Source: Candidatus Omnitrophota bacterium
GTDB lineage: Bacteria; Omnitrophota; Gorgyraeia; Zapsychrales; Fredricksoniimonadaceae
Direction of reading: 5' to 3'
DNA: 64,000 bases
Assembly: GCA_903860135.1 (NCBI GenBank)
Contig: CAIOPG010000004.1
Span: 185,687 to 249,686 of the forward strand
The translations under genes were made by a program, and so were the position numbers. This document shows positions 25,711 to 64,000 of the stretch, in pieces. Numbering within the stretch: position 1 is the stretch's first letter; the number at the start of each line of letters is the position of its first letter. The notes under the pieces are model-generated. The model was not told the DNA's origin, made no database searches, and saw only the letters and a program-made list of their open reading frames with translations.

Positions 25711-25858
25711 AGTGTCTCCAAATAAAAACATTAAACCGAACTTATCGGTAATATTAACAAAGGTCAGTTAAACACTCAAGGAAAAAACAGATTATTTCCT
25801 TCATTCAAAGATTATCAAAGACATGACGACGGGAACAAAAAATGACACGAAATTACAA

Positions 25859-35654: not shown

Positions 35655-35740
35655 GAAAGAAATCTCCTGATTCAATTAAGGAATGGAACCGACGAATAAT
35701 TTTAACTTGGATTAAAATAAATAACAAGCGGAAAAAGGTG

Positions 35741-36115
35741 TTATGCGGCTATCCCCGCAACTTCGGAAGCGATCTTGACCAAGCGGTTCAACTGGAAAAG
35801 CTTGACCTGATGAAATTCCATCCCGACATCCCACAGCGAAACCGCCTGAGGCTTGGACCAACACACACGCCCGTTAAGGGCAAGGGGGTCTTTTCCATCA
35901 GGAAGTTCCACTTCAAGGGAAAGCCTGTCATCAATGAAAAACCGCTCCTTGGTGTGCAGGCGCACACCCGAAGCAGAAAAATCCCTCAAAAAAACATCAC
36001 CGCCATAATCTACAGATGAATCCTTGAACCGAACGGGAAATTTCGCTGAAAAACGCTCAAACATACGACGATTTTGCTTGCCTGACTGTTCCTGATCTTC
36101 AGATACGACATCCAT
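35741..36115 (-). CDS. PilZ domain protein (c-di-GMP binding), single-domain
   Basis: RRMFERF ... DFSASGVRL (RxxxR and D.SxxG motifs). ATG at 36115 with GAGGGGG RBS. The track ORF is over-extended to 36244. Confidence 0.7.
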   Translation of the reverse strand: MDVVSEDQEQSGKQNRRMFERFSAKFPVRFKDSSVDYGGDVFLRDFSASGVRLHTKERFFIDDRLSLEVELPDGKDPLALNGRVCWSKPQAVSLWDVGMEFHQVKLFQLNRLVKIASEVAGIAA

Positions 36116-36155
36116 GAAGCCCCCTCGTATTAACTGGACGCAATGCCCAGCACCC

Positions 36156-36509
36156 TCAAGCCGACATTTCGCGGTGCAGGAACGGCGCATCGAGCGCGCT
36201 ATCAATGTCTTTCTGGGTTCCATCAACCACATCCGCAAATACAAGCCCCACGCGGTAACGCTCGGATCCCGGAATTTTGTTCACCCATTTAACCTGACCA
36301 ATGACCAGGACGGGCTCCGCTCCGGCCTTGAGAACCAACTCAAGGGCTATTTTCTCGTTCACTGGAACATTATGCCTAGAAATAAAGCCCAAGCCATGAC
36401 GGCTGATATCAACGGTTTTAGCGGATGTGAACGGTGCCCCTTCTTTGCCATCAACAGGGACCGCGCAAGCCCAACGACTGAATTTTCTTTTATTATTGTC
36501 ATTTTGCAT
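36156..36509 (-). CDS. PilZ domain protein (c-di-GMP binding), single-domain
   Basis: RKFSRW ... DISRHGLGF (RxxxR and D.SxxG motifs). 117 aa. Confidence 0.7.
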   Translation of the reverse strand: MQNDNNKRKFSRWACAVPVDGKEGAPFTSAKTVDISRHGLGFISRHNVPVNEKIALELVLKAGAEPVLVIGQVKWVNKIPGSERYRVGLVFADVVDGTQKDIDSALDAPFLHREMSA

Positions 36510-36747
36510 AATTTTTATTCTAATACGCGGATTGACATTTACAAGTTATTTTCTTACTAAAAAGATGTCCAAAAACCCAAAACATCAACCAACCATTATA
36601 GTTACACATTACCGCAGGATCATGTGTGTCAATACAAGTATGCCATTAAAATGTTTTTACGCAACCCCAAAAACCAAAAGAATGAAAATTTTTCTTTTTT
36701 AAAGCTTTATGGGATTATAATCATAACATGAAAAGAGGCAGGCAAAT

Positions 36748-36936
36748 ATGACCCAAAAGAAAAAAGAAAAGATCTCCTACCAGGAATATGAACGACTGAA
36801 GGACAAGGAATTAAAACAGAAATTCAAGATACACTTTTACCCTTGGCCTGTTCTGGTGGCAATGCTGATACCGCTGGCTCTGCTGATCTACATGATGGTT
36901 TACTATTTTAGTGGCGTCTGGCGCCTGCCGGAATAA
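36748..36936 (+). CDS. Small single-TM membrane protein, hypothetical
   Basis: AAGAGG RBS 8 nt upstream. K/E-rich N-terminus then PWPVLVAMLIPLALLIYMMVYYF. Ends 2 nt before the cvpA start. Confidence 0.4.
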   Translation: MTQKKKEKISYQEYERLKDKELKQKFKIHFYPWPVLVAMLIPLALLIYMMVYYFSGVWRLPE

Positions 36937-36938
36937 CC

Positions 36939-37679
36939 ATGCTTTTGACGGATATTATTTTTCTTATCTTCCTTGGTGCCTGCGCCGGTCTTGGCGCCTG
37001 GCGCGGTTTTCTGCGCGCCCTGATCGGTCCCGCGGCTTTCTTAATAGCCTGCGCGCTCAGCGGTGCCTATTCCGCCCTGACACATAAAATCTTTGAAAGC
37101 CTCCTGGTCCTGCTCTTGGGGCCGCCGATCATTGGCTGGGGTCTGAAAGCCTTAGTGCGCCGAAAGGATCAGGATCAACCGCTGCCGCCGCTCGCCTGCG
37201 TCAATCGTGTTTTCGGTGCCATCATCGGCCTGACCTGGGGCGGCGTCATGGGGCTTGTGCTCATCGCCATCGTCGTGATCCTGCCGCTGGACAGCTTCGG
37301 CCTCGGCGACATCACCCGGGATGTCCACGCTTCCGCCACCCTCGCCCTGTTCAGGCACCCGCTCGAAGCCTGGCGGCTGATCCCGCCAAAAGAAATAAAC
37401 GCATGCCTCGACGGCCTGTGCGGTATGCCGAAAAAAACCCAGACCTCACTCGCCCAAGACCAGGATATCCAGGAGCTGGCCCAGGATCCCCGCCTGCAAA
37501 AACTCCTGCTTGATCCGGTTGTACAAAAAGCCATCACAGATAAAGACTTCCCCGCCCTCCTGTCCAACCCGCAGATCCTCGACATCGTCCGCGACCCCGC
37601 GCTCGTGGCCAAAATGCTGAAAGTGTTCCCCAAGATCAGGGCCGCCCAGCAGGCAGCATCAACCTCATCATCCCTGTAA
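36939..37679 (+). CDS. cvpA: CvpA family membrane protein
   Basis: N-terminal TM helices LLTDIIFLIFLGACAGLGAWRGFLRALIG... typical of CvpA (colicin V production). 246 aa. Converges on and overlaps the giant ORF 3' end. Confidence 0.7.
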   Translation: MLLTDIIFLIFLGACAGLGAWRGFLRALIGPAAFLIACALSGAYSALTHKIFESLLVLLLGPPIIGWGLKALVRRKDQDQPLPPLACVNRVFGAIIGLTWGGVMGLVLIAIVVILPLDSFGLGDITRDVHASATLALFRHPLEAWRLIPPKEINACLDGLCGMPKKTQTSLAQDQDIQELAQDPRLQKLLLDPVVQKAITDKDFPALLSNPQILDIVRDPALVAKMLKVFPKIRAAQQAASTSSSL

Positions 37680-40600
37680 AAGGCGTATACTGTGAATCCT
37701 CAATCAACGCATGCGTAAAATCAGCACCCTCCAGCTGAGCTCCTGTAAAATCACAACGGGATAGCTGTGCGCTGGAAAAATCAGCACCTCTCAAATCTGC
37801 ACCGCTGAAATTAACATTTTCAAAAATACCATGACTGAAATTGCCCTTAAAAGCATTGATGCCGCTGAAGTCAGAATCCACAACATTAGCTTGTGGCATG
37901 AAAATACGCGAAAAGTCTGCCCCTATGGCACTCACCCTGTTCATGCGGATAAATCGCAATGATGCCTCCTTGAAATTCGCTCGCTGCAAACTTACATCAA
38001 CAAGCCGTGCATCCATCAAGTTTGTTCTATAGAATTTTGCACCACTTAAATCAACATCATTCAATACAGGCAGATCACAGCTGATAATACTGTAATCCAT
38101 GCCTTTTAAAAGACTGATAAGCTTATTGCCAACAAGAGCACGTTCATTGATACGCAACAAAGGTTTGTTATCCTTCGGCATATTGACAATGTTCTCAAGC
38201 CTTTCTTTCACAGAAGAATTATTTAAAAAAGAGATGCCCACTTCGTTTTTGATAACAGAAAGTAATTGCCCCCCCCTAAAAGGACGGTACAAATACATAT
38301 CTATTTTACCTGCTTTCGGAGATCCATACCGAACAATCAGGCCTTCCAGGCGCCTTTTCCCTTGGATAACATCATATAAGATAGGAGCATCAAGGATCAC
38401 AGCTGTTCTTCGACCGGATAAACGCTCGACAGATTTCTTTAATACACAAACATCCCTTGAAAAATCACTCCCGTAAGTTGCAAGAGGGATAGCCTCCTCA
38501 GCATGAGAAGCTAAATAAAAATTAATCCTGTCAAACGGCATCCGAACCAATTCCCAATCATGCTTGTCCCAGGCCTGCCGAAAGTACGATTCAGCAAAAG
38601 GGCAAACCGGCTCAGTGATCCCCCAGCGCGTTTCAACCATGGGGACATCATCCTTCAACTCCTTGTTCTTCTCGTGCACCGCGGCGGCTTCCTGATGCGC
38701 GCGCCGGAGCGTTGTGGCCGCGTTGACTGCCGCTATCCCAACAGCGACGAGCGCCAGACTGCTGGCAAGGATAACAGCGGCGGGCACACCTGTCATGCCC
38801 GGGAGCATCAGGAAAAAAAGCGGCAGGGCGTGGCAAGCCAGAGGCTGCGGCCGCGGGGGGCGGGCGGCCATCTTGATCAGCTTGATATGCGCCGGTGCAC
38901 CCCAGTGTGTAACACTCACGCCACCGGCACTCAACCAGCGCAAGGGCTGTGCAGGATCCGCTGCCTGTTTCTGGGCAAGCAAAGGAAGAATATGATCTCG
39001 CAACAACCGATAAAAACCGTCGGCTTCAAACAAGCCCGGGATGTTCGTCTCTGCCGGAGCTGACTCCTGATACGCCACGGTCTTCAAGAACAAGCGCCCC
39101 AGCAATCCCGGCATCCGGCCACCCCCTGCACGCACCCGGGCCAACCAAGCCCGCACCTGCCCCAGCATGGCCTTGACAGCCGCCGCGCCACCAGGCATAT
39201 CAAACCAAGAAAACGGGATATCTTCGAGCGTGAACAGCAGGGGGGCCAGGCGGGGACGAATCAAGCGTTGCCGGGACGACAAGGTGTTCTTTGTCATCCA
39301 CACCTCCTGATCTTCCGGCCCCACACGTACTGCCTGAACCCAAATAACGCCCAGCGCGATCAACACAACCCCGACGGCCAACCAAGGCCATGCGCTGACA
39401 CCGATCGTAGCCACCAAAGAACCCAAGGAACCAGAGGATATTAAAAAAAGAAGCGGCCAGGCATGAACGGGTAGTTGCCGTGTCGCTGTCATTGATGAAG
39501 AAACATCTCTTTTTAACCCATAAGCCATGGGATTCCGCATAACATTCAGCCTCAAGGGCAAAGGCAAAGCAGATGCTAAGGCTACAACTTTTCTCGAATC
39601 GACGGATGTGCGCAAACCAGCGACCCAATTTTTGAATTCACCCCATCCATGAATGTTCGGAAAATAAAGCCCCGTCCCAACACAGCCTGACCATTTATAA
39701 TCATGTTTGCCGTACGGCACCATAAGTACAATATCCCCTTTTTGTGTATCTGCCAGCATGCTGCGATAAAAAGGCTGTTCACCGCGCATCTTGGCATTAT
39801 CACCCGGCCCTTTGTCAATCATGATCACACTGCTTGAAATACCTCGCCTCGTATGCCGCCATTGCTGCGACCAGGAATAATAATCTTCACTTGTCAATTC
39901 AACAGAAAACGTGCGTTGCGCATCAATGCTTCTGAGTTTGGTTAAACACTGCTGACGAAGATCTTCCATATTTTGCACAAATTCATACCCTGTTGAAATA
40001 AAATGGAATGTCGTTAAATTCGGGAAGTGTTGCGCCAACAAAACAGCATTAAGCGGATCACTATTCCCGGCGGCAGGATAAATCAGTGTTGTAAATGCGT
40101 GCAGATCAACGCCACGCGCCCTTAATAAATCCATACAATTCAACGCAACCTTATGCGCTGCACCAGAGACACGCTCGAACAATCCCTTGGCAAGCTGTTC
40201 CCCCAATTTAATATTATGTTCACGCGCCCGCTGAATTTCTTCCTCAGCCGTGACTGGCTTGGCTGATTTTCCAATAACAACCCCGGCGATCAACAGGGCG
40301 ACCCCACCTGCTACCAACGCAGCCGCAGAGATGGACGCTGTGGCACCAACTGCCGCCGCCGGCACAGCCGCCATGACCGGAACTGCCGTCAATAATATGC
40401 CGAGGATCAAAAGCACGGAAGATTTCGCCGCAAACTTCTTCAATCCCAACGCACCGACCAACAGGCTCAGTCCGGCAATCAAGCCACCCACCAACAGCCC
40501 ATCCTGGTTAACCATCGGGCTGACCCCAAAAGACCGCGCCTGAATCGCAGTCGCAGTCGCATCCGCCGGAGTTCCAAATTTGCCCTGGCCAGGGTTATCA

Positions 40601-43600
40601 TAAACAACGCCGGCTTTCGTGCGCGGCACAGGCAACGTCACCCGCGTCGCATCCGCCGGAGCCCCCTGCTTGCCCTGCCCCACCATCTCAGGCGTGACCA
40701 CAGCCACCGGTGCCGCCACCGGAACGGCCGTCACTGCCGGGATAGCCATATCAACCTTAACCGCAGCCTGCACGCGCTCAGCCGCCTCGGCGGAACCTCC
40801 CGCCAACAGCATCCCCAGGATCATCGCCGCAGTGGTATTCTTCTTGCGATTATTTCTGTTTGTGATCTTTTCAATACCGAAATGCGCAATAACAATGCAA
40901 CAGACCGTCCACATCATATTCTCGAAAGAAGCAATAAAGAAACACATGAACGTTGTTGTTGCTACTGTCTTTATCCAAAGAGCACCTCGGCCTTCACCCT
41001 TACCTTTAATTCCCAACATATATGCAATTAATATAACAATAGCAAAATCCAAAGCAAGATCCAAAGCAAGATCCAATATTTCCAACTCATATTCCAAACG
41101 TGCAACGGCTTCATCCGTTTCCTCTTGACGGCTTCTATCGTCTACATCCCATGATGACGCCATGGCAGTCGGTTGGACAGCACGCGCCTCAGCTTGAACC
41201 GGAGCCGCTGTCGATAGCATGCCAAGGACCAAAAGTATGGAAGATTTCGCCGCAAACTTCTTCAATCCCAACGCACCGACCAACAGGCTCAGTCCGGCAA
41301 TCAAGCCACCCACCAACAGCCCCTCCTGGTTAACCATCGGGCTGACCCCAAAAGACCGCGCCTGAATCGCAGTCGCAGTCGCAGTCGCCGGAGTTCCAAA
41401 TTTGCCCTGGCCAGGGTTATCATAAACAACGCCGGCTTTCGTGCGCGGCATAGGCAGCATCACCCGCGTCTTATCCGCCGGAGCTCCCTGCTTGCCCTGA
41501 CCAGGTGCGTCATAAACAAAAGGAGCGTGTACCTTCGGCAGGGGCACAACAACCCGCGTCGCATCGGCCGGCGCGTAGGCAACTGGCGCTGGTGTTTGCT
41601 GCAATACGGCGCGTGGCATTGTTGCCGGCATCGCGCCTTCTTGAATAACCCGAACCTGATACCCTATACCTGTCATGACCGACAAGCCCGCGATGGCCAA
41701 CCACAACTTGACCTGCCGGATTGCTTTCGCCATCGCTGTCGGTGATTCAGCAACAACGACAGGCACCGCCATTTTCTTCTTGTTTCTATCCCGTCTCTGT
41801 TCCGACTGTGCTTTACGCAGCAAGAAAGATGGAACAGCTACTCGACCATTCCTGTTTACATAAAATGTTTGCCGGCTCTGATTCTTACGCCCGATCACAC
41901 TGCCCATCACAACCAGCAACCCGCTGATCATGTCCAGCGCACGGTTATGCCCCTGCGCGACCGGTATAACCATATCAACCTTAACCGCAGCCTGCACGCG
42001 CTCAGCCGCCTCGGCGGAACCTCCCGCCAACAGCATCGCCAGGATCATCGCCGCAGTGGTATTCTTCTTGCGATTATTTCTGTTTGTTATCTTTTCAATA
42101 CCGAAATGCGCAATAACAATGCAACAGACCGTGCACATCATATTCTCGAAAGAAGCAATAAAGAAACACATGAACGTTGTTGTTGCTACTGTCTTTATCC
42201 AAAGAGCACCTCTGCCTTCACCCTTACCTTTAATTCCCAACATATATGCAATTAATATAACAATAGCAAAATACAATATTTCCGACTCATATTCTAAGAT
42301 AAAACTTATCTTCTGACGAAACTCATAACGCGCGACTTCCTCATTCGTCTCTTCTTGAAATTTCCTATCGCCCTCATCCTCCCTATACCTCAACGCATCC
42401 GCCGGTGCGCCATTGATACCCTGGCCAGGATTTTCGCCGATAACGACGGGCGACGCTACCGCAGGCAGTTGAACGGCACGCGCCTCGGCCTGAACCGGCG
42501 CCGCTGTCAACAACATCCCCAGTCCCAGCAGGATGAAGAATCTCGCCGCGAACTTCTTCACCGCCCTACCGGCGGCAATCAAGACCAACAGCACGGCCAC
42601 ACCACCCACGATTTCCAACCCCCTGTGATCCTCAACAACAGGATTTTGCGACGAAACCCACCTTTCCTGGTGCCTTCTTTCCTGGCCAACCATATCAACA
42701 CGCGTCTTGTCCGCCGGAGCTGATACCTGCAAGGCATCCATTACCGCTGGCTGTGCCGCAAACCACAATTCAACGGCTGAATCCATAAGCCGCTCGTCCT
42801 TTGGAGTTGATACAACGATCTTGTTCACATCAGAAGATATTACCGCAGGCTTTGCCGTGACAGAGCCGGGAAATAACAGGGAAGCAACAACAATAACGGG
42901 GAGGACAACAGAAGTAACCTTGCGGAAGAAATTTGAAACCCGTAAAACCCCGACGGGCGGGCTGGCGTCGGCCATGCGGCTGGCCTTCACATCCGGGCCG
43001 GCGTGCCATAACCAGGCGATGACAGCACCAACAGCAACCAGCACCAGCACCCCACCCACAAACGCCAGCACCGGCGGGCTCATCAGCGCGGAGAGGCTCC
43101 AGGTCGACGGTATCATCATTAGAAATAGCGGCAAGGCAAGGCCGGGCATGGCGGTAGAAGAAGGCGGCGCCGTCTTCGGATGAGATTCCCGTGAACGCAC
43201 ATACTTCACAACCGTCCCAACAGCCTGGCGTGCAATGTTAAGGGTCTTTGAAAAAATACTGTTATTCTTGCCATGCTGGCTGCCCTTATCCTTGTTATTC
43301 GATTGATCACCCTTATTGTTCTTGTCATTCTTATTCCCACGACGTAAAATCTTTCTCTCCTTGAAAACGCCCTTTATCTGCGCCGCCAGCACCGTTCTGG
43401 TCATGCCGATCATCTCGCGCACCGAGCGGAAACCGAAATAGCCCGTACCGGCGATCCCTAACACAAATATCCAATTCAACCAGATCGGCATCGCCAACGC
43501 CGTCCCTGACAAGAAAATACCAAACACAAGGAATGTTATGACCAGACCAGCAAATGTTCTGATGGCCCAACGATCACCGAACATTTCAGCCAGGCGCCAC

Positions 43601-46600
43601 CCGGATAACTGATACCGGCCATAACCATATTTCACAAAACGATCGAACTTATTCAGCGCAACAATGGTCTTTGGATCTATCGTCTTACCCGTTTCAACAG
43701 CGCTGACCTCTAAGAAATATCGCACCAACGACCCCAAAGCCGCGCCCCATGAAATCTTCACATCCACAAACGTGCCAAAAACACTTGTTCCCGTCAATAA
43801 CGCAATACCTAATAAAATATATGGCACAATTGACACAGCACCAATGGCCGTTGAAAAAAGAAATGGTACAACCCCAGCTAAGATAATAACCGTCCCCATA
43901 ATGCCGACCATGGGAATGCCGACTAGATGCACACGCGTCATCGTGTGCAGAACACCGGCCATCGCAAACAGGATCCCCGCCGCAGCAAGGGCAAACCAGG
44001 GCATCCAGGTATGTCCAACAGCAAGAATACTTGCCGGCAAGAAAAACCCGACAAATCCGGCCACCAAAAGAACCGTGGCCAGTGCTGTAAGCGATTTCTT
44101 CAATCTCTTTTCTGTATGCGCACCAAACTTCAGCAAGCCTTTACTAAAACGCGTAAAAGTATCAAAAAGCGCAAAAAGCGCTGTGCGCGACGTCGGAATA
44201 AAAGAGAACTTGAAGTGACTCACCATGAGGGCACCTTCCACAAATGACCATAACATGCTGACACAATAAGGAAAAGCACGATAAACATCTTGAACGAAAA
44301 GATAAAAGCCATACCAGAAACTGCCGTACCTGTAAATATGCCGCAGTAAATTAAAAAGATTGACCGCGTTCATCAAAATAATACTGGCTAACAACCAGCC
44401 CCAGATAGGCATTAGATACGCCATACCGCTCCAGGCCATCATCGTCGGGATCGCTAGGGACAATATAAACCCGAACGCAACGACCAGGTAATGGAAGAAG
44501 TTCTCAAGTACGCTCAGCTTGAAATCTGCCCCAATATGTTTGTTGGTGAAAACTTTATACATCATCGATGACAATAACATATACGAAACGTTAAACACAT
44601 ACCGCACCTCAGTCCAAAAAACGGATTCAGCATGCAAGCACGGCCTGAGCCATTCCCAAACCCATGCTAACTGCGTTGTGGCATAAACTTCAGGATTGAT
44701 CTCTTTCTGTATCAGATACGCGCCAGAATCCTCAACCGGCGTCATGAGCAGGTTGGCACCGGCAGCCGGATTGATCATCGCCTTGCCATAAAAGAGTGCC
44801 ATACCCTTAAATCCCATCTGGGCAACCTGGCTGAACACCTGCTGCATAAGTTTGTAAACCCGACGTCCCGGATACGCAAAACCGCTCGATCCCCAGATCA
44901 GGAACGCCGGATTAATGACAACCGCTTCCGGATGACGACCCATGAACTCCGCCGCATTAAGCCGGTAGGGGTTGGATCCCGGCATGACGCGGACCTGCGT
45001 ATCCTGGTAGGCACACACATTGTTATGCAGCCAGATATTCAAGGCAATACCGCCATTCTTTAAAGTCGAGATGATCTCATCACCCTCATAGATCGGAACA
45101 TGGGCATTGGAGGCATGGGCGGATTCGAAGACATGTGCCCATTCGATCATGGCATTATATTCCTTGATCACCCCACCCTCGAGGAACAGGTCATAATGCG
45201 TCGCGCGGAACCCCAGCACAAGTGCTGCAAATTCCATCTTGTCGGCAAATACAAACCGCTCGATCCCGTCCATAAAGAACAAATGCTGATCATAATTTGG
45301 AAATTTCTGCGCTACATACGCCGCAAAAGCCCGATTCACCGCACTGGCACCTGCCTTTTGACCCGCACGGATCTTTTCCGCCACTGGCATAAAGGCCCAC
45401 TTATGCGTAGCATCGGCAAAGCCCTTCTCCTCAGCCAAAGCCCGCGCACGTTCATCATTGAGCAGGCGAATATTGGACCTTGCCGGATCAGCATTCTGCC
45501 ACATCGTTGTCATCATGAGCATTTGCATGATCTTCGACTTTGTTATTTCTTTATAATGAGGAAACTGGGTGTCGGTGATAAATAGCTCCTTGAGGTGGAT
45601 CTGCTCCTGCGTTCCTGTCAAGGCCCCGACCTTACTGGCGGCTACCCAACGCTCATATGCCTCCTGAAGCGAATCGAACTCCTGATCCGCCAGCATCACC
45701 GCGTGCCGGTAATCTGTATCCGCATTACTCATGCCTGCCAGGAGATGAACCGTGATCACGGCCTTGGCAAAAGAAGCCATGACCGCACGGTTGGCCGGAT
45801 CGATCTCGTCCATCATCGGACCCATAAGATTAACCGCAGCCAACACCGCCTCAGGTGACGTTGCATACGCCTTCTTCAATACACCCATGAAATCAAAATG
45901 CTCATCCGCCAGCGCCAGATCATCGGCGAGTGCGGCAAAACCCTGCAGACGTAATTTAGCGAGCATATTGGCATATTCCACCCCATGCGTGCGTGCCAGA
46001 TAACCGAACATGCTCGCCGTGATACTGCCTTGAAGGATTTCGATCTTCGCCAGCTCGGCATCGATCTTTTTAACAAGATCCTCATCAATTTTATTTTCTG
46101 TCAGTATTCTTTTAACACCTGTACGCGTAAAGTCCGAATAAAGCTCGGCAGAACCATTTTTGATCAAGGTCAACACCTTACCCACCATATTCAAGCGTTC
46201 CATGGCACCCATCCCCTTGCGGGCATAATGCATCTTGATCATTTTAGCAAGCGCACGCTCTTGTGGCGCATCGATCACCAGCGACATCGTCCCCTTGCCC
46301 AAAAAAGCTTCCGGCGTATGCGACACTTGCTCAATATAGGTCTGCACATTGGTAACCATCTGCTTGTGTTTGGCATACGTGTCCACTTCAACCCGGCGAT
46401 ACGCCGGTGAATTCATGTTCATATATAAATATTCCCGTGCCTGCTCCCCCTCGAGGCGAGGAAAATCCGTGCCAAGGTAAACCGCACGCCTTAAGAGCTG
46501 TCGTTCACGCGCATTGATGCGGCCCGACCTGTACAACTCGATCCCTAAACCATCTATATGTTCGGCAAAGGTGACCCAGTTAGGCAGGATATAGCCATAA

Positions 46601-49600
46601 ACATTCTCAACCCTCTGATATACCCGATTAACCCGTCCGAAATATTTCCTGTTGTCACGATCCCAATAAGGTCTAAACAGCGAGAAGAACAAATTATGCC
46701 GGGATCGCACCACGGGATTCCATATCTCACTGCGTGTCTGATAATTGGATTTAATAACACGATAAACAACAATGACAGGCTTGAGCATAACAATGGTGAT
46801 AATCGCCCAAAGTGCCGCCGTATTGAACATACCAAAAGTGCCCGCCAGCATCATCGCCGTATACCATTTACCAAACAAGAGCCACGCCAGGATTCCTTCC
46901 ACAAGGCTGTAGGTCGTTGAAACAAATACCCAGAAAGTCTTCTCGCCCTTAACCGGCATATACGAAAAGAGGACCGCTGACGTGGATATGGACCAAAATA
47001 GGCCGAACACCAATAGCCCAACCGACCCGGTCACGCTCAGCAGCCAGAAAGAACCTGCAAGCCCCGTCAGCATCAAGGCCGCCAATACCGCACGCTTCAC
47101 CGGAGAATGGACGCCCAGCGTATCCTGGAACGTGGTCTGATGCTTACGTCCCGTGGCACTGCGCTTGAATTTACCCAGTAGCCCTCCAAACAAGCCGTAA
47201 ATACGCTTGTACAAATGGAACATCCCCTTCTTCTTTTCAACCTCGATCTCTTTGCGGAAAGCGATCGGTGAATCAAGCTCAAGCATATGCCAGTATGCGA
47301 TCAAGAACGGCTTAAAGCAAGGCAGGAGGGTTTCCATATACAAATTCGCAGCCGTGTTCTTGCCCTTGTTCGCTGATACCGCATTGATGCGTTGTTGCAG
47401 TCGTGCAAACACACCGTAATCGGCCGTATCCGTATCCTTCTTCGCCAACACCACCTTGATGCTTTGTTGCAGTCGCGCCAATACGCCGCGATCTTCATCA
47501 TCCCTGCGGGAATTGTCTTTCTCCATATCCTCTTCGGCGTACTTAGCCTTCACGGTCTTTTCATAAAATGCCGCCAAGCCTTCAACTTCCTCTACCGTTA
47601 AACCAAATACGTTGGCATTCTTATTGATCACATCCCATGATAATTCAAACTTCGCCTCATCATTGGCCACCCTGCGGATCGGAGCTTTTCCGTTAACCTT
47701 GATCTTGGTCATGGCATCATAAATAATCGCCCCCCTGGCTCCAGCCGCCGCCTCAAAACCAGCTTGCTTGAATGTTCCCTGCCGGGCTTTCAGCAATTCA
47801 CAACCTTCCAACACCATGGCTTCCCGCTCAGCACTTGTCTCGGCCACCTGCGCCAGCATCGCTTCAAATTCTTCAAAAACATCCATGTTATATGCCTCCA
47901 GGCTTGCTTCACGGCTAATATTTGTCCGTATAAGGCGCTTGGATAAATTCTGGAAGAAATACAATATCTTCTCGTCATAGAAACCATGTGTGAGCGTAAT
48001 GTTGCCCTGCTTTTTAATACCATGTTTATCAGAATCAGCCACCCAATTGTAGATCCCCTGCATTTCATTTGTCACATGCTTCAAGTTGTTCATATAGAAC
48101 AAATACCGCCAGAACCGGACATTCTGCCGGATAAAATCATGGTATTCTTTCATGGCCTGGGGATTAAGATTGGCGTCAGGATAAGCATTTCTCCTCTTGT
48201 CCATGAACCAATGCGTAAGGAACAGGACTTCCTGGAAAATGAAACCATCACCGCCAAAAGATAAATGCTCGGTTTCGTTGCGTGGCGACTGCATATATTT
48301 AAAGAAAAGATACGCCTCAAAAGTAACAGGTTCAGACGCCTTAAAGACCGTTGTCGGATTGCCGATAAAATTCATCTGCGCATAGGTCAACGGCATACGC
48401 GACGGCCGCTGGGCGACCTGGAACTCAAACTCCGCCAGCATCTGCCTGTAATAATCCTCCTTGTGCGTTTCTGTCGCAAACGACAACCCATGATAAACAA
48501 TGAATTCATCTATGCGGTTGCGCAGGACTTTTTCACGAATAAACATCTTTACAACATCGTTGAATGAATACAGCGCCTTATTCAAAGACAACGCCTCGGC
48601 ATGCTGCGCAAGAGCTTCCTCAAATCCAGCGTAATGATGTTCTAACAAGTGCACAGCTTCCCTGGCTTCAGGCGTCCTTAAACGGTAGAAGATGGAATGA
48701 TCCTTCGCCCCCTCATTGCCCGCCCTGACCTCAATGACCTTATACAGTTCCTGGATGCTGATTACTTCAAGGCTCTTTTCCTGCGTGTACTTCCGGGTGA
48801 TATCGCTCTTGTGTTTGACTTCAGTAATACTATAAATCCGCGCCAGTTGATTCTTGAATTTAAGCGTTGTGCTAACAAGATAAATGAGATTGGCATAGAT
48901 AGGCTCAAAAACCGCACGTTCATTACTGGCCATCTGACGCTGACGCTCCGCCTCAGCCGCCTTGAAAAGTTCTCTAAACCCAGGAATCGGGATTCCCGCC
49001 TCATCAAACTGCGTTTTCTTGGCATCCATGATCTGCTTGATCGTATTGTTAGAAACCTTCTTTGTCGCCGCATACGCATCTATCTGCTTTTTAGCGAGCT
49101 TAAGAAGAACAGCGTCAAATGAAAGGCGGTGAGTAAATGGCTCCGTCACAGCACTCCCCGGCATCCTTGCCGCCTCGGCCACAAGAACATCGAGATTATG
49201 CTTGGCCAAGAAAGCCCGCAAGACAGGTTCAAGTGCCCGTTCAAAAGCCGCATCGAGTGCTTCGGCAATCGTGACCTGCAAATTCTTATTACGGCGTTTT
49301 TCAACCTCAACCAAAGCCGCCTTCAACCACGCCCGCTTGCCCGCATCATCAAGTGGCAGAACCCTTTCGAGCAGATCCATGATCCCCACCGCATGGCGAA
49401 CACCCTTGGCGGCACGAACCCGTATCATGGTCAATAGGTCACCTGTTGTCAGCGGATCCTGAAGCAACGACTCCAGATGCCATGCCTTTTCCACCTTGTC
49501 CAGTATCGACGCCAGCCTAACCATCAATGAAACCAGCGGCCGACCCTCAAGCCGGGCCTTGATCGTCGTATTGGCTTTGATAACGCGCCTGACTTTATCA

Positions 49601-52600
49601 AACGCCCCCTTGATCCAAAGCGCCCTGCTCCTAGCCGCTTCCTCACTCCTGACCGCCTGCATATAATCCCTGGCATTCTCATCAAAGCTGATCACCTTTT
49701 TTTCATACATGGCAACAAGTTGCTCTACCTGCTCAGAATCCATTCCGCCCGCTTCCAAGCGCTCGCGCACCGTATAAGCATCAAGGATCTGTTTCTCCAG
49801 ACGCTCTAGGCCTCCGTGTTCCTCAATATTATCCATCGCCTGACGGAGTTTGCTCCTATTCTCCTGGTAAGCTTCATAAGAAAGCACGCCATCCCTGTAG
49901 GCACTCTTCCAGCCAGTCTCAATGGCATTGATCTTGTCCGTCAGGGAATATTGAGACTCAACATCTTCCCTGTTATCATCGGTGATCAAGTCGTACGTTT
50001 CAAGAAAATGCATCACATCCGCTTTCTTGCCAGGAACAATCAGCCCGTTAGCCAGATCAAAGGCGATCTTGGCCTTTGCCAAGGCTACCGCTTCTTCATG
50101 CGATAACCCGCCGCGCCGCTCAAACACCTCCACAATCTCATCGAGAGGCATCTCATGGTTCAGTTTAACCGTCCCGTAATGACGTGCCCAATAATCACGC
50201 AAACGACGTACAGACGGGAACACAGAGGACGTCAATGTCGCCAGCAAAATCGCCGCCAAAATAGGCAGTGTCAAGATCAATAACCAGTGCTGATTCACAA
50301 CATCATTATAAATCGGCATATCCGCTGATGGGTTGCGTGCAACGCTCGATGTGACAGAAGGTTCTTGCTTTTCCGCAGCCTGTTGCAGCGGCGTCCAGAT
50401 TTTCTGCCTGACACTAATATATTTTCCATTGATCGACATGACGCTTTTATCATTAAGCCCCAATGACATTAACGCACGCCCCGTCAAGGAATTCGAGAAA
50501 AGATCCAGATTGCTATTCTTATAAACTTCCCCATAAAAACGCTCACCATTAAGTAAATTAATAGTCTTGTTTATTGGATCCATCGCAAATACAGCAACAA
50601 CCTTGTTGTTCACAGAAAGCCTGGACAAGATCTCCGTATTATCTTGCGTCACCGGCACCTGGCGAACTTCCCTGACGATCGTGCCATCCGCAAGCTCAAA
50701 ATACCGCGTCATAAATGTGCTGTACTGATGAATATCCAACGTCGTCCTTGATCTTTCAGGACTCTTTAAATACTCCAAGGTGTTATCAAGATTCGTTAGC
50801 GTCCCGCCAAGGTGCATGGTGTACGCCGGCTTTCCGTCATATGTAACCTGAACAAAATGCTCTTTAGGATAAAACTCTTCAATCTTCCCGGAATCAAACC
50901 AATAAAGAATCTTGATCTGCGCCTTGGCATTAAACTCATGCTCTTGACGCCATTCATACAGCACAGAATAACTGTAGCAATGCGCAAAGGCCTGTTCGAA
51001 TTCTGTCTTGCGCACCACCCTGTTAGTCTCGGGCTGAACCGCCACCTCACCGGAAGCGACCATAAATGGCAATGCCATCTTCCGGTCAAAATAACCCTTT
51101 TGCACACTTCGGTATTCCATGAAACGATAAGCATTGTTTTCGATCTTGATCACATCCACAGGCAACGGGTCATTATCTGGAATATAACGCACCAAATTAA
51201 GATCAACTTTCTTGGTTGTATCATTCAAAGAACCCAACAAAGTACGCCGTTCAATCCTGATCAAGTTCTTATATCCTAGGAAAGCAAGATCCTTCTGCCT
51301 CTCAGCAAAGCCAATGACCTTATCCAACTGTTGCTGCCTGTAAAATTCCTCAGGCGCGATCCTTCCACCCGTTTTCTCAAAGTAAACATCACCTTGATGT
51401 CCCGTCGTTTCAGCGCGTGTCATGATCCCGTAAGCCTCGCTCGCCATTTGTTTATCAAACTGCGTGTTCACCACAAAAGTCGCATCTTCAACAAGCGGCG
51501 CTGACTGAAGTGCCACAATGTGGTTCTTGGGGTCTTCCTTGAGTTTCCGGACAAGATGCGTACCATTACCGATAATTTTCAAACGAGACTCAACAATATG
51601 AACGTCCCCCGTAATGCCCTGTTGTTGCTTAAGCATGGCAATCGTTTGGTCAAACTGCTCCAGCAATGTAACTTCCCGGCCATTGATATTGCCTTTAATA
51701 TTAAAGACCTGTTGACGCGCCTGTTCCAATGTTAACGTCAGGCTGTCTTGCGCCACCTCGATAAGCCTGGCATCCACAAAACGATTGGGATCATTTCTGT
51801 CCTGCTTGAGCACATACGTATAGGTGATATCCCCGCGGGTGTATTCCATCTTCCACCCCCAGATGCCGCCAAAATCAAGCGGAAAGATCGAACCAGGGAA
51901 ACGATTCGGCTGAAGAAGCGTTCCCCGCGCAAAATGATATTTTCCATCCTTGGGGTTATACGTATAAGCAGCTTTAACGCTCGGATGCGTAAGCACAGCC
52001 TTGCGTATCACCTCAGGTGACAGTGTCAAAACCTGCCTTGTTGGCGTATAGCTGACTTCATGACTAAAGTCAATGCCACGGGCTTGGCTGAAATTATACA
52101 TACGGCTTGTCCTGTCAGGGAACAACACCTCTACCATGCCGCTAACAGGCTTGCCATCACGATAAGTATCTGGATACCAGCTAATGAGCTTTTCCCCAAG
52201 GAAACTCTTATCATAATTGCCTTTGCTTGTCGTCTCTTTATCCGTGAGTGCAATCGCCGTGGCAAATAAATTCGTGGATGCATTGCTGGGATTTAAAATA
52301 TCCGAAACTTTAAGCTCAACATTCTTAAAATGAATTTTACCTCTTTCCACAACATAATTGATCGGCGTACGGCGGCCGGCAATGTAATCATCAAAACCAT
52401 AAACCTTGAGACCCTCGACAATCTTGGATCCCTTGCGGTCATCCATCAAATAGAAAGCCCCCAAGTTACGCGTCGTACCGTCACCAACTAAGCCAAGTTT
52501 GTCACCCTTTTCCACGTGCAGAACATCCACAAGGTCATGCCAATAAGCCTGCACCTGATTCAAAGTTACAAATACCTTATCCTTCCACTGCGCCTTCGCG

Positions 52601-55600
52601 CTGTCCTGCCGCGGGAACTCGACAAGATACGCACTATTCATCAAAGCACTTCCCTCTTCGGGGTCATTAAGTTCACAACGAATGATCGGTTGGCCGACAT
52701 CCATCCTGACAAGCCGCTGCGCCAGGCTCATATACTCAATCGTATTCCCGCCCAATGGATCCATATGGTCGATCGACAGCACATACTCCGCATATTTTGG
52801 AACTTCCTTAAGGACCTGTTCTTTACTGCTGAAGATCTTCGATGCTTTATCCTTGAGGACGACCACATAACTGCTCTCGTTATACGGGCGCTTCTTCAGC
52901 TGGGCGATTGACTCTTCGAGCGCCCCCTTCATGGGCTCAAGGATGATCGGATACGCACTGGTGATCGTCTTGCCGCCCAGCGTATACGTCCCTGCCGGCA
53001 GGACCATTGCATCACCGGCGCCCATAGGTAGCAGAATGCCGTTAACCTTAAGCGCAAACCGCTTCGTCTCCCTGTCATAGATAACCCCCATGCGCGCCAA
53101 CGCCTGATCCGTTCCCTTCCAATACTTGAGCGGTATCGCAAGTTTAAGATCCTTCCTGGTCAAATAGGCATATTCTTCCTTAGATACAGCCACAGGCAAT
53201 ATCCCCTGAACAATCGCCCGGCCCTGACCGTCATACATCGCCTTAAGCGTTTCAAGCACATCCGGCGAAAGATGAACCACCTGGCCATCACGCGTCATGA
53301 GGATGCTTGTCTGACCTTCCGATGAAACGTCACCGGTTACCGTGATCTCACGATTAATGGGCTGAGGGTCGACACTGTTATACGGCACCACCATATCCAG
53401 GTTTTGGATCGTCGTAGCATCGCGTGGCGTGCCTGCCGGGAGCTTTAGATCCTTATTTTTGTTCTTAACAACATCCAACGTAACCCCGCGCGTCAAGCTG
53501 AAGCCTGGGACCAGGCTCTGTCCTGGAGTAATACCCAAATTTGTCCCAATGCCAATATCAACGCCGCCACTAGCCTTCCAACCAGCGAACGTTTGCAATC
53601 CGCCCACCTTGGCCGAAAGACCAGCGCCGTAATTACCGTCGGAATAGAAACCATTCAAATGTCCCACTGTCCCGTTAATGCCAAGCCTGCCGTCATGGCT
53701 GTAAACAAGACTCGCCGAACTTTCCGCGCCCATCAGCGTGCCATTCAACGCCAGGCCGGCGAATGACGTCACACCAGCATTCTGCCGGCGCTCAACGCCC
53801 ACAGAAACCTTCAAGCCCTTGACGATCTCATACTGGTAAACAGCGCGTGCAAACTGCTCCGCCTGTGCCGCGCTCAGATTAATCTTTTCCGAAGGAACAA
53901 CATTCCCCTGGGCATCACGCAGCCGATCGTGGGTGAAGGCATCCCAATACGTGAACTCAGCGGTTGTATTGGCTGTCCCTTGGGTACGGCCTACTTCCAC
54001 CGTGATCTTGCCGCCATTCAAGATGGCATTACTGACCGCCGCCTGCACATTCGTCCCATAGGTGCGGGCATTGTTCTGATCCGCCCAGGCAACAAAACTA
54101 TCCCAGCCAAGATAAACAGATACCTTGTTAGAGCCGTTATCCGCCACATCGCGCTTAAAGGCAACGGCATAATCCAGGACGGTGGTGTTGGTATTCACCG
54201 TCGTATGACCAGCGTCACTCGTTGGATCATGGGCATCGAGAATAAGATAATTGGATTGTCGATACTGCGTAAGATTAAACGACGAGTTAAAGATCGTCGT
54301 CGGATTATACGTCAGCCAATTTACAGTGGCTGCTGTCAGGGACACAGGCGCAGCCGTCGCATCATAAGGCTGACGGCTTCCGGCACCGAGCGTCCACGTT
54401 GCACCATTAAAAAGCGGCCGCGTGGTGGAGCCAAAAGATACCGCCGTCCCATTATGGATATTGTTGGTAGAACTGCCCATCGCAGAAACTTCCGGCGTCA
54501 GGACAACAACCACGCCCGCCTCGTCCACAACATAAGCAGCCGCCTTGATGCGCGCCGCAAATTCCCCCTTCACCAGGCTGATGGCACTGGCTTCCGCCGC
54601 CGGCGCCAGATGAAGGCCCTTGATAACCTGCAGGGCCTTTTCAAGTTCTTCCTTGATCCGCTGGCTATAGACGGCTGCTTCTGCCGTGTACCGGGCAGAT
54701 ACCTCCAGGCGCTGCTTTTCAGCCGCCGCCATCTGCGCCTCAATTGCCTGAGCCGGAGCATAAGCATCCATAACCTGTTGCCGCGCATTATTCCGGGAGC
54801 CCAGCGCATCGTTGACAGCCCTCGAAGCCCCGGCACCGTTAGCCACCGCATTCCTGAGGTTATTCATCACCTCATCGGCAAATTCCTTGTTTTTCTTCAT
54901 TTTAGCCGCAACGTCCGGCGTAAAAATCGAAAGGTCATCAAATCCCGTCCGTAATTTCTGACTCAACCGCAAATTCTCGGCCCACAATGTCGACATGGTT
55001 TCATTGAAGCTCAGCGCATCCTGCGCCAACAACATAATGGGCCTGTCAAAATCCAGTTCACTGCCATGCGCGATGGCCACACGATCCATGGTCTCAACAT
55101 TATTGATCAGTGCTTGAACCGTAGCCGTAGCCTCCGGCGTCAAATTCTTGCCCTTCTGCAAATATGCCACTTCACTCATGATCTCCGTATGCCGTGCGCC
55201 CGTATAATACGGAATATATTCGGCAGGATCCTGCAACGGAATGTTCTTGAAATCCTGAACCGATACTATGATCGAGCTATCAAACAAAGTCTTGGTTTCA
55301 TTCAGGATCGCAATGTTTTCTGTCTCAATGGCGGTCTTCTCCGAAACAACCGCATCAAGATTAACAGGGCTGTAACCAAAATACTGCGTCGTCGGAGCGT
55401 TTCTATATAAAGCCTTGCTATTCTCAAGTACCGCGATATCTGCCTGCAGATTAGCGATTTTTTGATTAAAAACATTCGTCAAAGAAACAGGATTGTAGTT
55501 GAAATACTGTGTCGTCGGAGCACTCCGGTATACGTCCTTGCTTTGATTTAACGCCGCAATCCTGTCATTTATAATAGCGATCTTTTGGTCGACAACAGCA

Positions 55601-58600
55601 TATGGATCAAACCCGCCTGATTGCAAATCCACGGCATCCTGATTAACACGCGCCAGATCTGCAACGGCCACTAGCCGTTTTGCTGCCGTTTCATCTACAG
55701 CCTTTTGGAGAAACCCTGCCCACACCGTATCCCCTGCGGCTGTCGCCTTGTTCAGCTCGGCATTCCAATACGCAAGTCCGTTCTCAAGGGACTGGATATA
55801 ACCACCTGTTCCATTGGAACCCAAATAATAATTACGCGCCGCCTCTATCTGCGTTGGCGAGAATAAGACAGTAGAGAAATGCTGGCTTTCCATAAGATTA
55901 AGATTGTCGATATACCCCTGATTCGTGGAAATTTCGGCATCAATCAAGCTAACCTGCGATTGAATATAAGCCGCCGCATCATTATCCACAGACGGATCAT
56001 ACCTGGTCATATCTGTCCTGTCCTGCATAACGCGGACAAGATTCGCTCTGGCAGCCGTTAATGTGATCTCCGTGTTAGCAAGACAGCTTTCAAGAAACTG
56101 TACCCGCGCAGTGTCCCCTGCGGCATTCGCCTTGTCCCGTTCGGTATTCCAATACGTACGCCCATCTTCAAGAGACTTGATATAACCACCCGTTCCGTCA
56201 GCACCAACGTAATAATCATGCGCTGCGGTTATCTCTGCCTGCGATAAGAATACCGTCGAATAATCATTCTCCCTCGCCTTCGTCTGCAGACTGGCAAGAT
56301 TGTTCTGCGCTTTAAGAATATCGGCATCGATCTTATCGATCTGCCCCTGAAGGAAATTCGCCGCATCCGGATTAACAGCAGGGTCACTCAAAACCATATC
56401 CTTTGCATCCTGTACCACACGACCCCAAGCGCGCTCAATATTTATCTGTTTCCTCTGAGCAAGGCTCAATGCCTTCTCAAGAATCCCGATCAATGTGGGG
56501 TTCCCCTCGGCTTTAGCTAATTGCTGCCTCCAGAAAACAACAGAATTCTTCGCTTCCTCGATAGCCCCCACATTCCCATCCTTACCAAGGTAATAACCCC
56601 TCGCCTTTTCCATATCCGCTGGCGAAGAATATACCGTGTCATAATTGTGAGTATTCTGCAGGCTGAGCGCGGCAATATTTTGCTGGCTTTCAAGAATCGC
56701 CGGCGCGATCGGATCAATATAAGTCGACTGAATATACGCCACCGCCTGCTCATTGGTGGTAACAGTCTCTGGCGTAAAATAAAGCCGTCCCCACAAAAGC
56801 GGCGTTATTTCAGCATACCGGCGCATGACCGTTGCGCCGTCTGCAAATGATTTCACCTGTTTCGCTGCCCAGTCAAGGGCTTTGTCGTCGAACACCCCAG
56901 GGATCGTATTATAAAGCGGCGCGGTCTCCATCCGCGACAACCCGATCGATGAATGCAGGTACTGCAACTGATCGATCCTGGCCTGATTAACCGGCAGGTC
57001 CGCATCAAACGATAATCCGGCACCAGTCTTTTCTGCCTTGCGCACCGCCGACTGCGCCTGCCCTGCCAGCGCATACTGCTGAAGGTTCGAGCTCTCGATC
57101 TGCCGACCCAATTCCGTCAGCGTCCCATAGCCCTTTCCAAAACGCTTGAAATCCACGCCGCTCAAGGCCTGCTCCACCGCCGCATCCACCCGCAAACGAT
57201 TGCTCTCATAATCCGTCGGTATTGTTACTAACATCGGTACTTCAGGCACGGCCGTCAAATTACCCAAAGAATCTTCCGTTACACCTTTTGCATCCGGGTT
57301 CTCCTTAAATTTCTTCACGAGTTTCTTGTCATTGGAGCTGTACTCCATAAGCCCAACTTCACCGGGCTTTATACCCGGTCCATCCGTAACGATATTGCCT
57401 TGGGTGATATATTCCTCCGGATTGAGCCCACGGCTTCCCAAATACGTCTGGAACTTCAATTTATTATCCTCGCTCAGCGGCTCCACTTGGTATTGCTTCA
57501 TATCTGCCTGCGTGTACAAATATATAATCCTATCCGCAAGAATAATGCGTGCCAGCGACAATCCCGGCAAGGCCTTCGACAGATCAATATAAACCTCGAT
57601 CGTATCCTTGGTCTGACGCCCCGGCAGGCTCACGCCAGCGGGCAACAGCTCATACGCTGAACCACTCGTCAAATAGATCGGCGACGGAACCTTGTCCCCA
57701 AACGTCTTGCCCTTGTCAACATGCTGCGGCTCGACCTTAAAGGTGCCGACCGCATCAGGAGCCGTACCCGGACGTCTTTCCACCAATTCATAAACACTTT
57801 CCGGATGCTCCAGCGTCGGCTGCTGTTTCAACCTGAATACGAACGTCACGCCCGTGTGTACATCCCGGTCAAACGTGCCGCCCAAGGCAAAAGCCAGCGA
57901 CGACAATGTTTCTTTGGCGCTGGACAAAACAACGGCAAATACCGGCTTCGCTGGAACAAGAACATCCTTATCATCACGATGCTCCGGCCACATCAACGGC
58001 TTGCCTTCAGGCGTCAAGATCGGCCTGTCAAGATCCACCAACGCAGGCACCCACTGATATCTTCCGTCACGGAATGTTGGAACAGCCTGTATATCAAACC
58101 GGTGCTTTGTGTCATCTTTCAGATAAGAATCACCAAACTTCACGCCCGCAGACGGATTCACAGCAATACCCCTGTTCTCCCGGCCATTTTCCACACCCGC
58201 CTGCAAGCTCCTGGCCATAGCCGCATTCTGTTCCCTCTGCCTGCGGCTGATGATCGGTGCCACCTCCCCTTCATGCTGGAACAAACCAACACTCTTGAGC
58301 CATGCCGCTTTGAAATCCTCCAGCGGCGCATACAAGCCATCTGTCGTGCTGCCTTCAAAACGGAACACCTGGAACATCTCTGTCACACCCTCTTTACCCT
58401 GTGTGCTATACAGCTTGTTCCGGTCGATCTTGTAATAAATGAGGAACTGATCGCCCGGCAAAGTCTTGCTTTTCTTCGTCACGGACGTACCCTGGACAGG
58501 ACGGGATCTGACCCATGTGATGTTCTCATCGGTCTCATTATCCGCCGTTGTGTTGATCAGTTTTTCCATATCTCCCACAACAGCCGCCCATACATGACGC

Positions 58601-63909: not shown

Positions 63910-64000
63910 TTCCTCGGCGGCATGGGCAATGATCGCCCGCCCTGTTGGTTGATCTGCTATTAATAACTGTTCTCTTTCTCCAAATGTGAATTTGTCTTCG

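Follow-up and report, generated by a model that had tools for sequence, protein, structure and literature searches.

A giant gene on the minus strand of a 64,000-nucleotide (nt) stretch of Candidatus Omnitrophota bacterium DNA (contig CAIOPG010000004.1; the whole stretch is referred to here as the window) carries 2.1 in-frame tandem copies of a hydrophobic cassette at 40387-42621 (-). The duplication that produced these copies is ancient, not recent, while the near-identity of the cassette cores indicates a recent event, which is likely to have been intragenic gene conversion. Taken as a whole, we consider it probable that the region represents an old tandem membrane cassette in which two tracts were later gene-converted, in which the AT-richness of the core is ancestral, and which acts as a topologically neutral module. 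An earlier note on this DNA had described the repeat and had suggested that the duplication or a gene conversion was recent, and that an AT-rich module of foreign origin had been copied in place.

The two intragenic units lie where the earlier note had placed them and, as judged by a repeat scan and a codon alignment, are in frame with one another (unit A, 1293 nt; unit B, 828 nt; Table 1). The motifs that it quoted are likewise all present, with three copies of KKFAA, two each of GIKGKGEGRG and NRNNRKK, and five of GQG..G.PA; the latter motif, together with PAD.[TL]R (which includes an occurrence at amino acid (aa) 7065), is confined to the cassette region of the protein. The repeat scan returned one pair of segments with 98% identity and a spacing of 1224 (D1; 40737-41036 versus 41961-42260), a second with 94% identity and a spacing of 822 (D2; 40376-40675 versus 41198-41497), and a weaker third copy of the first-helix piece, which is of transmembrane (TM) or signal-like character (D3; 42452-42560, 77%). 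When the protein was compared with itself by blastp in 200-aa pieces, units A and B matched each other with E values of 1.6e-72 and 2.2e-64, and the tail together with the first helix (TM1) with an E value of 1.1e-55.

Each unit can be read as a series of discrete parts. Unit A runs from a diverged TM1 through a KKFAA loop, a signal-like helix and an acidic linker that holds one GQG motif to the core (FAIVILIAYMLGIKGKGEGRG...NRNNRKKNTT...AEAAERVQAAVKVDM), which is followed by a segment specific to this unit and by a tail with GQGK/PAD motifs. Unit B has the same general order, with TM1, a KKFAAKSS loop, a signal-like helix ending in AAPVQAEA, an acidic linker with an LDLA expansion, the core, a short A/P/V linker and the GQGK/PAD tail. 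A partial unit C follows, and a possible degenerate "unit 0" precedes unit A, where a TM helix, a basic patch with a signal-like helix (FFRKVTSVVLPVIVVASLLFPGSVTA) and a PADKTRVDMVGQ motif are found without a core; Smith-Waterman alignment of this stretch with the cassette parts, assessed against shuffles, gave no significant score. The tails also contain a hexanucleotide run, TCGCAG, which is present in 2.8 copies in unit B (40545-40561) and 3.7 copies in unit A (41367-41388) and codes for the ATATA stretch of the tail; here the difference in copy number is a two-base substitution (D versus T) with no change in length.

The age of the duplication can be read from the codon-wise divergence between the units, which we estimated with the NG86 method. 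Between A and B, synonymous divergence (dS) is 0.92 in TM1 (53% nt identity), 1.19 in the KKFAA loop and signal-like helix (75%) and 1.21 in the acidic linker (72%), falling to 0.11 in the tail (91%) and to 0.031 in the core (99 codons; non-synonymous divergence, dN, 0.009; 98.7%). Since dS is about 0.9-1.2 in three of the five segments, the duplication must be old, and the mosaic of divergence, with a dS of 0.03 in the core versus 0.92-1.21 elsewhere, argues for an old duplication overlaid by patchy gene conversion. A similar patchwork is seen between units B and C, in which the first helix and loop are 98.8% identical at the nt level and the following 24 codons 65%. Thus the earlier description of the cores as almost identical is borne out (6 of 302 nt mismatched), and so is the idea of a recent conversion, whereas the proposal of a recent duplication does not survive the divergence of the remaining parts.

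The near-identical sequence falls into two homogenised tracts (Table 1), one of which covers the core and the other the junction between a tail and the TM1 that follows it; overall, the tracts are about 98.6% identical and their longest exact common runs measure 84 and 79 nt. Across the A-B alignment there are 120 mismatches in 792 aligned nt, yet the best 297-nt window holds only 4. Mismatches are therefore clustered beyond chance, as none of 5000 shufflings of their positions gave a 297-nt window with fewer than 25. In addition, the signal-like helix and the acidic linker of unit B lie between the identical tracts, and these two pieces are homologous to their counterparts in unit A but synonymously saturated, so that no single recent segmental copy yields the observed order of pieces. 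It is for these reasons very unlikely that the repeat arose by a recent tandem duplication of a whole unit (~0.8-1.3 kb) with a later insertion and microsatellite expansion: although the two tracts are ~98-99% identical and the units are adjacent and in frame, as such an event would predict, it would also be expected to leave uniform identity, and TM1, the signal-like helix and the linker instead show dS values of 0.9-1.2 and 53-75% nt identity.

Could selection at the nucleotide level have kept the tracts near-identical, for instance because the AT-rich core houses a regulatory site, a promoter internal to the gene or a structured RNA? AT-rich intragenic DNA can bear promoter-like sequence, and there is one promoter-like match at 42319-42291 (-). 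However, promoter-like matches number 3 versus 2.3 expected from shuffles, terminator-like matches 2 versus 3.7 expected, and a search with Rfam finds nothing in the window. Furthermore, tract 2 consists of GC-rich coding sequence (a helix and a linker), to which a rationale of this sort does not apply, and tract 1 is itself partly GC-rich. Selection of this kind is accordingly an extremely improbable source of the near-identity, and we return to gene conversion as the preferred explanation.

Under this preferred reading, the present structure would have been reached in four steps. The cassette would first have been duplicated in tandem, long ago; two later gene-conversion tracts of ~210-300 nt, or one discontinuous tract, would then have homogenised the core and the tail-TM1 junction; in-frame replication slippage would have added LDLA repeats in unit B; and a single indel would have either added a two-helix segment to unit A or removed it from unit B. 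The expansion by 12 bp that had been noticed in one unit corresponds to the third of these putative steps and is indeed restricted to unit B, as three copies of AGCAAGATCCAA (Table 1). The fourth relates to the segment of roughly 440 bp that had been reported as absent from the other unit, and which the codon alignment reproduces with a net A/B length difference of ~400 nt. This A-specific segment encodes two hydrophobic helices around a very basic loop (15 K/R versus 3 D/E) together with one extra 30-aa PAD...GQGK motif, and shows no significant similarity to other parts of the cassette by Smith-Waterman alignment with shuffles. Whether it was gained by A or lost from B, it is an indel.

The AT-richness of the cores, which had led to the proposal of a foreign module, is real: in 100-nt sliding windows, GC content breaks from 0.62-0.71 in the flanks to 0.30-0.37 in both cores. 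The boundaries of the AT-rich islands, however, do not coincide with those of the recently copied DNA in either unit. Tract 1 begins ~90-100 nt before the AT-rich segment, in GC-rich sequence, and at its other end the AT-rich segment overhangs the tract by 60 nt in unit B and by 106 nt in unit A, where the two copies are only ~72% identical. Because the AT-richness runs into old, diverged sequence in both copies, it is older than the homogenisation and ancestral to the unit; the core has long been AT-rich, and its composition is not a mark of recent copying. Nor did we find any terminal or inverted repeats bounding the core, as the repeat scan returned 0 inverted pairs.

The base composition of the cores can also be set against that of the gene in which they lie. 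The giant gene has a GC content of 0.50 and a GC content at third codon positions (GC3) of 0.54, and the 70-codon cores, at a GC of 0.36-0.37, fall in the bottom ~1% of its windows. The amino acids of the core, which is rich in I/F/Y/M/N/K, lead by themselves to an expected GC of 0.43, so that about half of the deficit is due to amino-acid composition. Core GC3, at 0.37-0.39, lies at the 5th-7th percentile of the gene's 70-codon windows, in a gene whose GC3 is itself a mosaic, and about ten further stretches along the gene, among them those near aa 398, 3850, 4430 and 8560, are as AT-rich as the cores. This mosaic is a property of the giant gene. In 70-codon windows its GC3 is over-dispersed (standard deviation 0.099 versus 0.060 for a binomial; dispersion ratio 2.76, p 2e-22), whereas thirteen ordinary genes of the window fit the binomial expectation (0.055 versus 0.057); housekeeping genes have a GC3 of 0.63-0.74 versus 0.54 for the giant gene. 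Within the gene, blocks of low GC3 (0.29-0.49 at aa 211-1260; 0.34-0.41 at aa 8471-8757) can be distinguished from one of higher GC3 (0.57-0.69) that starts at aa ~1261.

These data bear directly on the suggestion that the gene took in the AT-rich core by horizontal transfer or as a mobile module, and that a copy was then made in situ. The sharp break in GC, the core's third-position composition and its enrichment in I/F/Y/M/N/K, as might result from evolution under AT pressure, are all consistent with such an origin, and the over-dispersed GC3 of the giant gene, which ordinary genes do not share, is compatible with the accretion of parts. On the other hand, the AT-rich and near-identical tracts are offset, the AT-richness predates the copying, no bounding repeats are present, some ten other 70-codon stretches are equally AT-rich, and no donor was found in protein, GTDB, JGI, IMG/VR, phage or plasmid searches. 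The data thus speak against a recently imported core that was then duplicated where it stood; a foreign origin of the core is not supported, and we judge the scenario as a whole unlikely. It is possible that parts of the giant gene are of ancient and heterogeneous descent, and on this point the GC3 mosaic favours the earlier reader.

What might such a cassette do? In a model based on hydropathy, a helical hairpin comes first, in which the KKFAA(K/R) loop joins a G/A/L-rich helix to a short one with AAPVQA-EA at its end, and the acidic linker follows; the core then contributes three I/F/Y/M/C-rich helices parted by the KGKGEGRG loop and by a very short loop; and after the core come an NRNNRKKN loop, a short helix ending in GGSAEA, and an A/P/T-rich tail with 30-aa PAD-TRV...GQGK-G motifs. 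Traced through unit B, TM1 (GLLVGGLIAGLSLLVGALGL) is predicted to lie in the membrane, the KKFAAKSS loop (net charge +3) inside, the short helix (ILLVLGMLSTAAPVQA) in the membrane and the acidic linker (net -9, and -7 in unit A) outside. From there, TM3 is predicted to be in the membrane, the GKGEGRGA loop (net +1) inside, TM4 in the membrane, a two-residue loop outside, TM5 in the membrane, the loop KITNRNNRKKNTTA (net +5) inside, the second short helix (AMILGMLLAGGSAE) in the membrane, and the A/P/T-rich tail with its 30-aa PAD...GQGK motifs outside. In the same table of loop charges, the A-specific loop has a net charge of +12.

By this model each unit would contribute six helices with both ends outside, and unit A, with its extra pair, eight, again an even number. 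As the number of helices is even and the K/R-rich loops fall on one side, the gain or loss of a unit leaves the topology of the remaining protein unchanged. We therefore regard a membrane-threading or anchoring module with an extended extracytoplasmic spacer as the most likely role for the cassette, as modelled, and its topological neutrality would plausibly account for drift in copy number and length.

Each unit additionally holds two signal-peptide-like elements, KKFAAKSS-ILLVLGMLSTAAPVQAEA and RKKNTT-AAMILGMLLAGGSAEA, with a basic n-region, an h-region of 14-16 aa, P/G at -4 to -6 and A-x-A, both of which are oriented N-in/C-out in the modelled topology. As patterns only, they resemble signal peptides (basic n-region, h-region of 7-15 aa, A-x-A at -3/-1). 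The protein has 4 matches to a regular expression for them, every one in unit A or B, versus 0.33 expected, with some local shuffles also reaching 4; the elements may simply be short TM helices. Elsewhere in the protein, a TM helix and a KK loop immediately precede a textbook lipobox signal peptide, MSGSVRFLSLVAMLALAGC, at aa 1329-1347 (59869-59925, -; 1 match versus 0.02 expected in local shuffles), which lies at the point where GC3 jumps from 0.29-0.49 to 0.57-0.69. The presence of an internal lipobox suggests the boundary of a fused gene or a site of internal processing.

One could go further and propose that the giant ORF encodes a polyprotein, a chain of once separate secreted or membrane proteins that signal peptidases I and II would cleave apart during translation. 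While this would fit the lipobox and its place at the GC3 jump, we consider it unlikely and unsupported. Were it true, the duplicated cassette would act as a "stop-transfer / restart-and-cleave" module, each unit of which offers two A-x-A sites in the proper N-in/C-out orientation, the internal signal peptides would still be working, and the gene would have many products.

Searches for homologues were carried out in a range of databases. The cassette (aa 7087-7870) had none among the best 8000 candidates from 5.8 billion clustered proteins, a set that was probably dominated by low-complexity words. No homologue of the cassette was found by phmmer in 1.84 billion representatives or in GTDB genomes, and none of the 130-aa core in a protein homology search. 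JGI metagenomes, searched with protein patterns and an exact 33-mer, gave no match to the cassette, and neither did IMG/VR or a blastn search of phage and plasmid records. It should be noted that the protein searches also missed the query's own 16,764-aa protein, so that those libraries may lack proteins of very great length. For the 741 aa downstream of the repeat, the sole match was a 634-aa piece of this very protein in a strain that is 99% identical. In the databases searched, the cassette and the C-terminal ~740 aa are thus without a homologue beyond the same species, and the searches gave no relative carrying the region for the comparison of copy number that the earlier note had proposed.

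A number of observations weigh against our reading of the region. The structure across 40376-42650 and the copy number are known from one assembly alone; the single independent contig to reach it (MEGAHIT, ERZ27313599 k141_666940, 85 kb, from another sample), which is identical to the window over 34636-40590 (5955 of 5955 nt), breaks at 40590, inside tract 2, and a 29-kb contig of the 99%-identical strain ends earlier, at ~aa 8124. The GC3 of the core is well under the 0.60-0.76 of its immediate flanks, so that the core may have come from a heterologous source long ago. The topology comes from a hydropathy scan and the positive-inside rule, some of the "helices" being just 14-16 residues long, and a single-sequence AlphaFold 2 model of unit B was poor (predicted local distance difference test score, pLDDT, 44), showing helices and then a disordered tail. 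Finally, the databases searched gave no relative carrying the cassette with which to compare the polarity and age of the conversion or the copy number.

Since independent contigs end in or before the repeat, the region is a breakpoint for short-read assemblers, which raises the question of whether the repeat is an artefact of metagenome assembly, created by a mis-join or by the collapse of strain variants or repeat copies. The metagenomic source of the DNA and the two contig ends described above would be in keeping with this. Nevertheless, the frame is intact through all junctions and is kept over 2.2 kb in which the copies differ by copy-specific substitutions at scattered sites, the indels are multiples of three, and the slippage is by whole codons. 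The longest exact runs are short enough (84 and 79 nt) to be resolved by ordinary read pairs, the 5955 nt that could be compared with the independent contig are identical, and public contigs of 189 kb and 343 kb bear the neighbouring genes, the former together with a call of the giant gene. An assembly artefact is, as a result, quite unlikely, and an old duplication with later conversion remains our preferred account.

The giant gene extends beyond the DNA analysed here. Its C-terminal part lies inside the window, in which 8,787 codons are open without an in-frame stop upstream of the first in-window ATG, and its start lies beyond the window edge. On a public 189-kb ENA/NCBI contig it is called as a protein of 16,764 aa, beside the same CvpA-like neighbour. 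When 8,757 aa were searched with Pfam and NCBIfam, the sole recognisable domain was a C-terminal pentapeptide repeat (PF00805, aa ~8600-8740, window ~37684-38109; 67.3 bits versus a gathering cut-off of 20.2), which lies outside the duplicated cassette; a PDB sequence search with the last 878 aa returned only pentapeptide-repeat proteins. Defined as 17-residue stretches with a mean Kyte-Doolittle value of at least 1.7, a simple hydropathy scan and not a trained predictor, 26 hydrophobic segments are seen in the ~8.8 thousand aa, with clusters at aa 5607-5719, 6467-6821 and 6939-8401.

Other repeats are visible in the same protein. A second internal family at aa 2373-2785 (55555-56793) consists of three tandem copies of ~125-130 aa of the "YY(L/V)G.(D/N)G.GGYI" type, which are 30-40% identical and match one another by blastp with E values down to 5.5e-39. 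Downstream of the cassette, two hydrophobic hairpins, LPVHAWPLLFLISSG... and LACHALPLFFLMLPG..., at aa 8146-8198 (39316-39474) and 8357-8401 (38707-38841), are alike (Smith-Waterman z = 9.5 versus shuffles) and may represent another old duplication.

The remaining genes of the window are those of an ordinary bacterium, and include a secretin, MutS/MutL, MnmE/MnmG, PurH, a Mur ligase and two PilZ genes, as well as a GH94/GH2 and ABC sugar-uptake cluster. The gene for the CvpA-like membrane protein (36939-37679, +) is convergent with the giant gene, whose 3' end it overlaps by 44 nt (37636-37679), and just past it are two small PilZ-domain genes on the minus strand, as is the giant gene. A Fic/DUF4172 gene (GC3 0.50) and three hypothetical or TPR genes (0.49-0.54), at 11782-12912 and 24364-27420, fall below the GC3 of the surrounding housekeeping genes and may be accessory DNA. 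MnmG (22373-24250) shares at most 51% identity with GTDB species representatives among the matches listed, in which an Omnitrophota metagenome-assembled genome comes first (51%, weak) and Gammaproteobacteria and Thermodesulfobacteriota follow at 48-51%. The organism, an uncultured diderm, is known from metagenomes only, with exact copies in several ENA/Logan assemblies and contigs of up to 343 kb, and its lineage is thinly represented in databases.

Table 1. Positions of the cassette units, their homogenised and AT-rich tracts, and the ORF (open reading frame) that holds them
Feature	Coordinates (nt)	Strand	Remarks
Giant ORF holding the cassette	37636..64000	-	8757 aa from first in-window ATG (63909); frame open to window edge
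Possible degenerate "unit 0"	42622..43092	-	aa ~6940-7096; proposed from hydropathy and the motif at aa 7065
Unit A	41329..42621	-	aa 7097-7527, 431 aa, 1293 nt
Unit B	40501..41328	-	aa 7528-7803, 276 aa, 828 nt
Unit C, partial	40387..40500	-	aa 7804-7841; TM1 and KKFAAKSS, then diverging
Homogenised tract 1, unit A copy (core)	41961..42262	-	6 mismatches in 302 nt (98.0%) versus unit B copy
Homogenised tract 1, unit B copy	40737..41038	-	partner of 41961-42262
Homogenised tract 2, unit A tail and unit B TM1	41239..41450	-	3 mismatches in 212 nt versus 40417-40628, offset 822
Homogenised tract 2, unit B tail and unit C TM1	40417..40628	-	partner of 41239-41450
AT-rich segment, unit A	42060..42368	-	GC 0.35; 106 nt past tract 1 into diverged linker
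AT-rich segment, unit B	40836..41098	-	GC 0.357; 60 nt past tract 1
12-nt array (AGCAAGATCCAA)x3	41041..41076	-	unit B only; in frame, codes for LDLA repeats; abuts edge of tract 1
A-specific segment	41509..41958	-	aa ~7318-7467, ~150 aa; ~18 aa at that place in unit B

The locus illustrates cleanly how gene conversion within a gene can act in patches on an old tandem duplication, and shows that a giant bacterial gene may extend its membrane-spanning part by increments that leave topology unaltered, which bears on the way in which such genes lengthen. From a practical point of view, repeats of this kind break short-read assemblies, and gene lengths and copy numbers at such loci need to be confirmed with long reads. 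The more interesting features are those of the gene as a whole: 16,764 codons without homologues in the searches made, a mosaic at synonymous sites, and internal signal-peptide-like elements.

Giant ORFs that are rich in TM helices and poor in domains have been described in a small number of phyla, Omnitrophota among them (10.1101/2023.11.21.568195; 10.64898/2026.06.07.730766), and West-Roberts et al. (10.1101/2023.11.21.568195) report a SecA DEAD-helicase domain of divergent type in most of these giant proteins. The gene described here resembles them in its length (>10,000 aa, with a call of 16,764 aa), its many hydrophobic helices, its sparse annotation by hidden Markov models and its origin in environmental metagenomes. 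Unlike them, it shows no SecA-DEAD, peptidase C39/S8, dockerin or carbohydrate-active domain in the 8,757 aa seen, with the N-terminal ~8,000 aa lying outside the window, and has a C-terminal pentapeptide-repeat domain instead.

Similar comparisons can be made for the cassette. Even-numbered helix bundles are known to be duplicated internally in polytopic membrane proteins, as in the 6+6 arrangement of MFS transporters. As there, an even-helix repeat keeps both ends on one side of the membrane and can therefore be copied in tandem while the sequence that comes after it keeps its orientation; in contrast to MFS proteins, the cassette has no transporter family signature in Pfam or NCBIfam, and long, disordered-looking linkers separate its units. 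With regard to the signal-like elements, Sec-type signal peptides are substrates of signal peptidase I, and viral polyproteins contain internal signal sequences. The cassette elements share with these a basic n-region, a short h-region and A-x-A, but, unlike Sec signal peptides, they are situated far from the N-terminus, thousands of residues into the protein, and are pattern matches only.

As for the process itself, bacterial surface proteins with repeats undergo intragenic homogenisation. The homogenisation of tandem repeats within genes, by gene conversion or unequal recombination, is well known, for example from spidroin repeats (PMC3933166). The cassette shares with concerted evolution of the spidroin type its in-frame units, tracts whose near-identity bears no relation to when the duplication took place, and length changes by slippage; it differs in having just 2.1 units, patchy tracts of 0.2-0.3 kb within saturated units, and a polytopic membrane cassette in place of a soluble or fibrous domain. 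In summary, what we describe is a known process, in-frame tandem duplication with conversion tracts, at work in an orphan giant gene, and as such it is not surprising.

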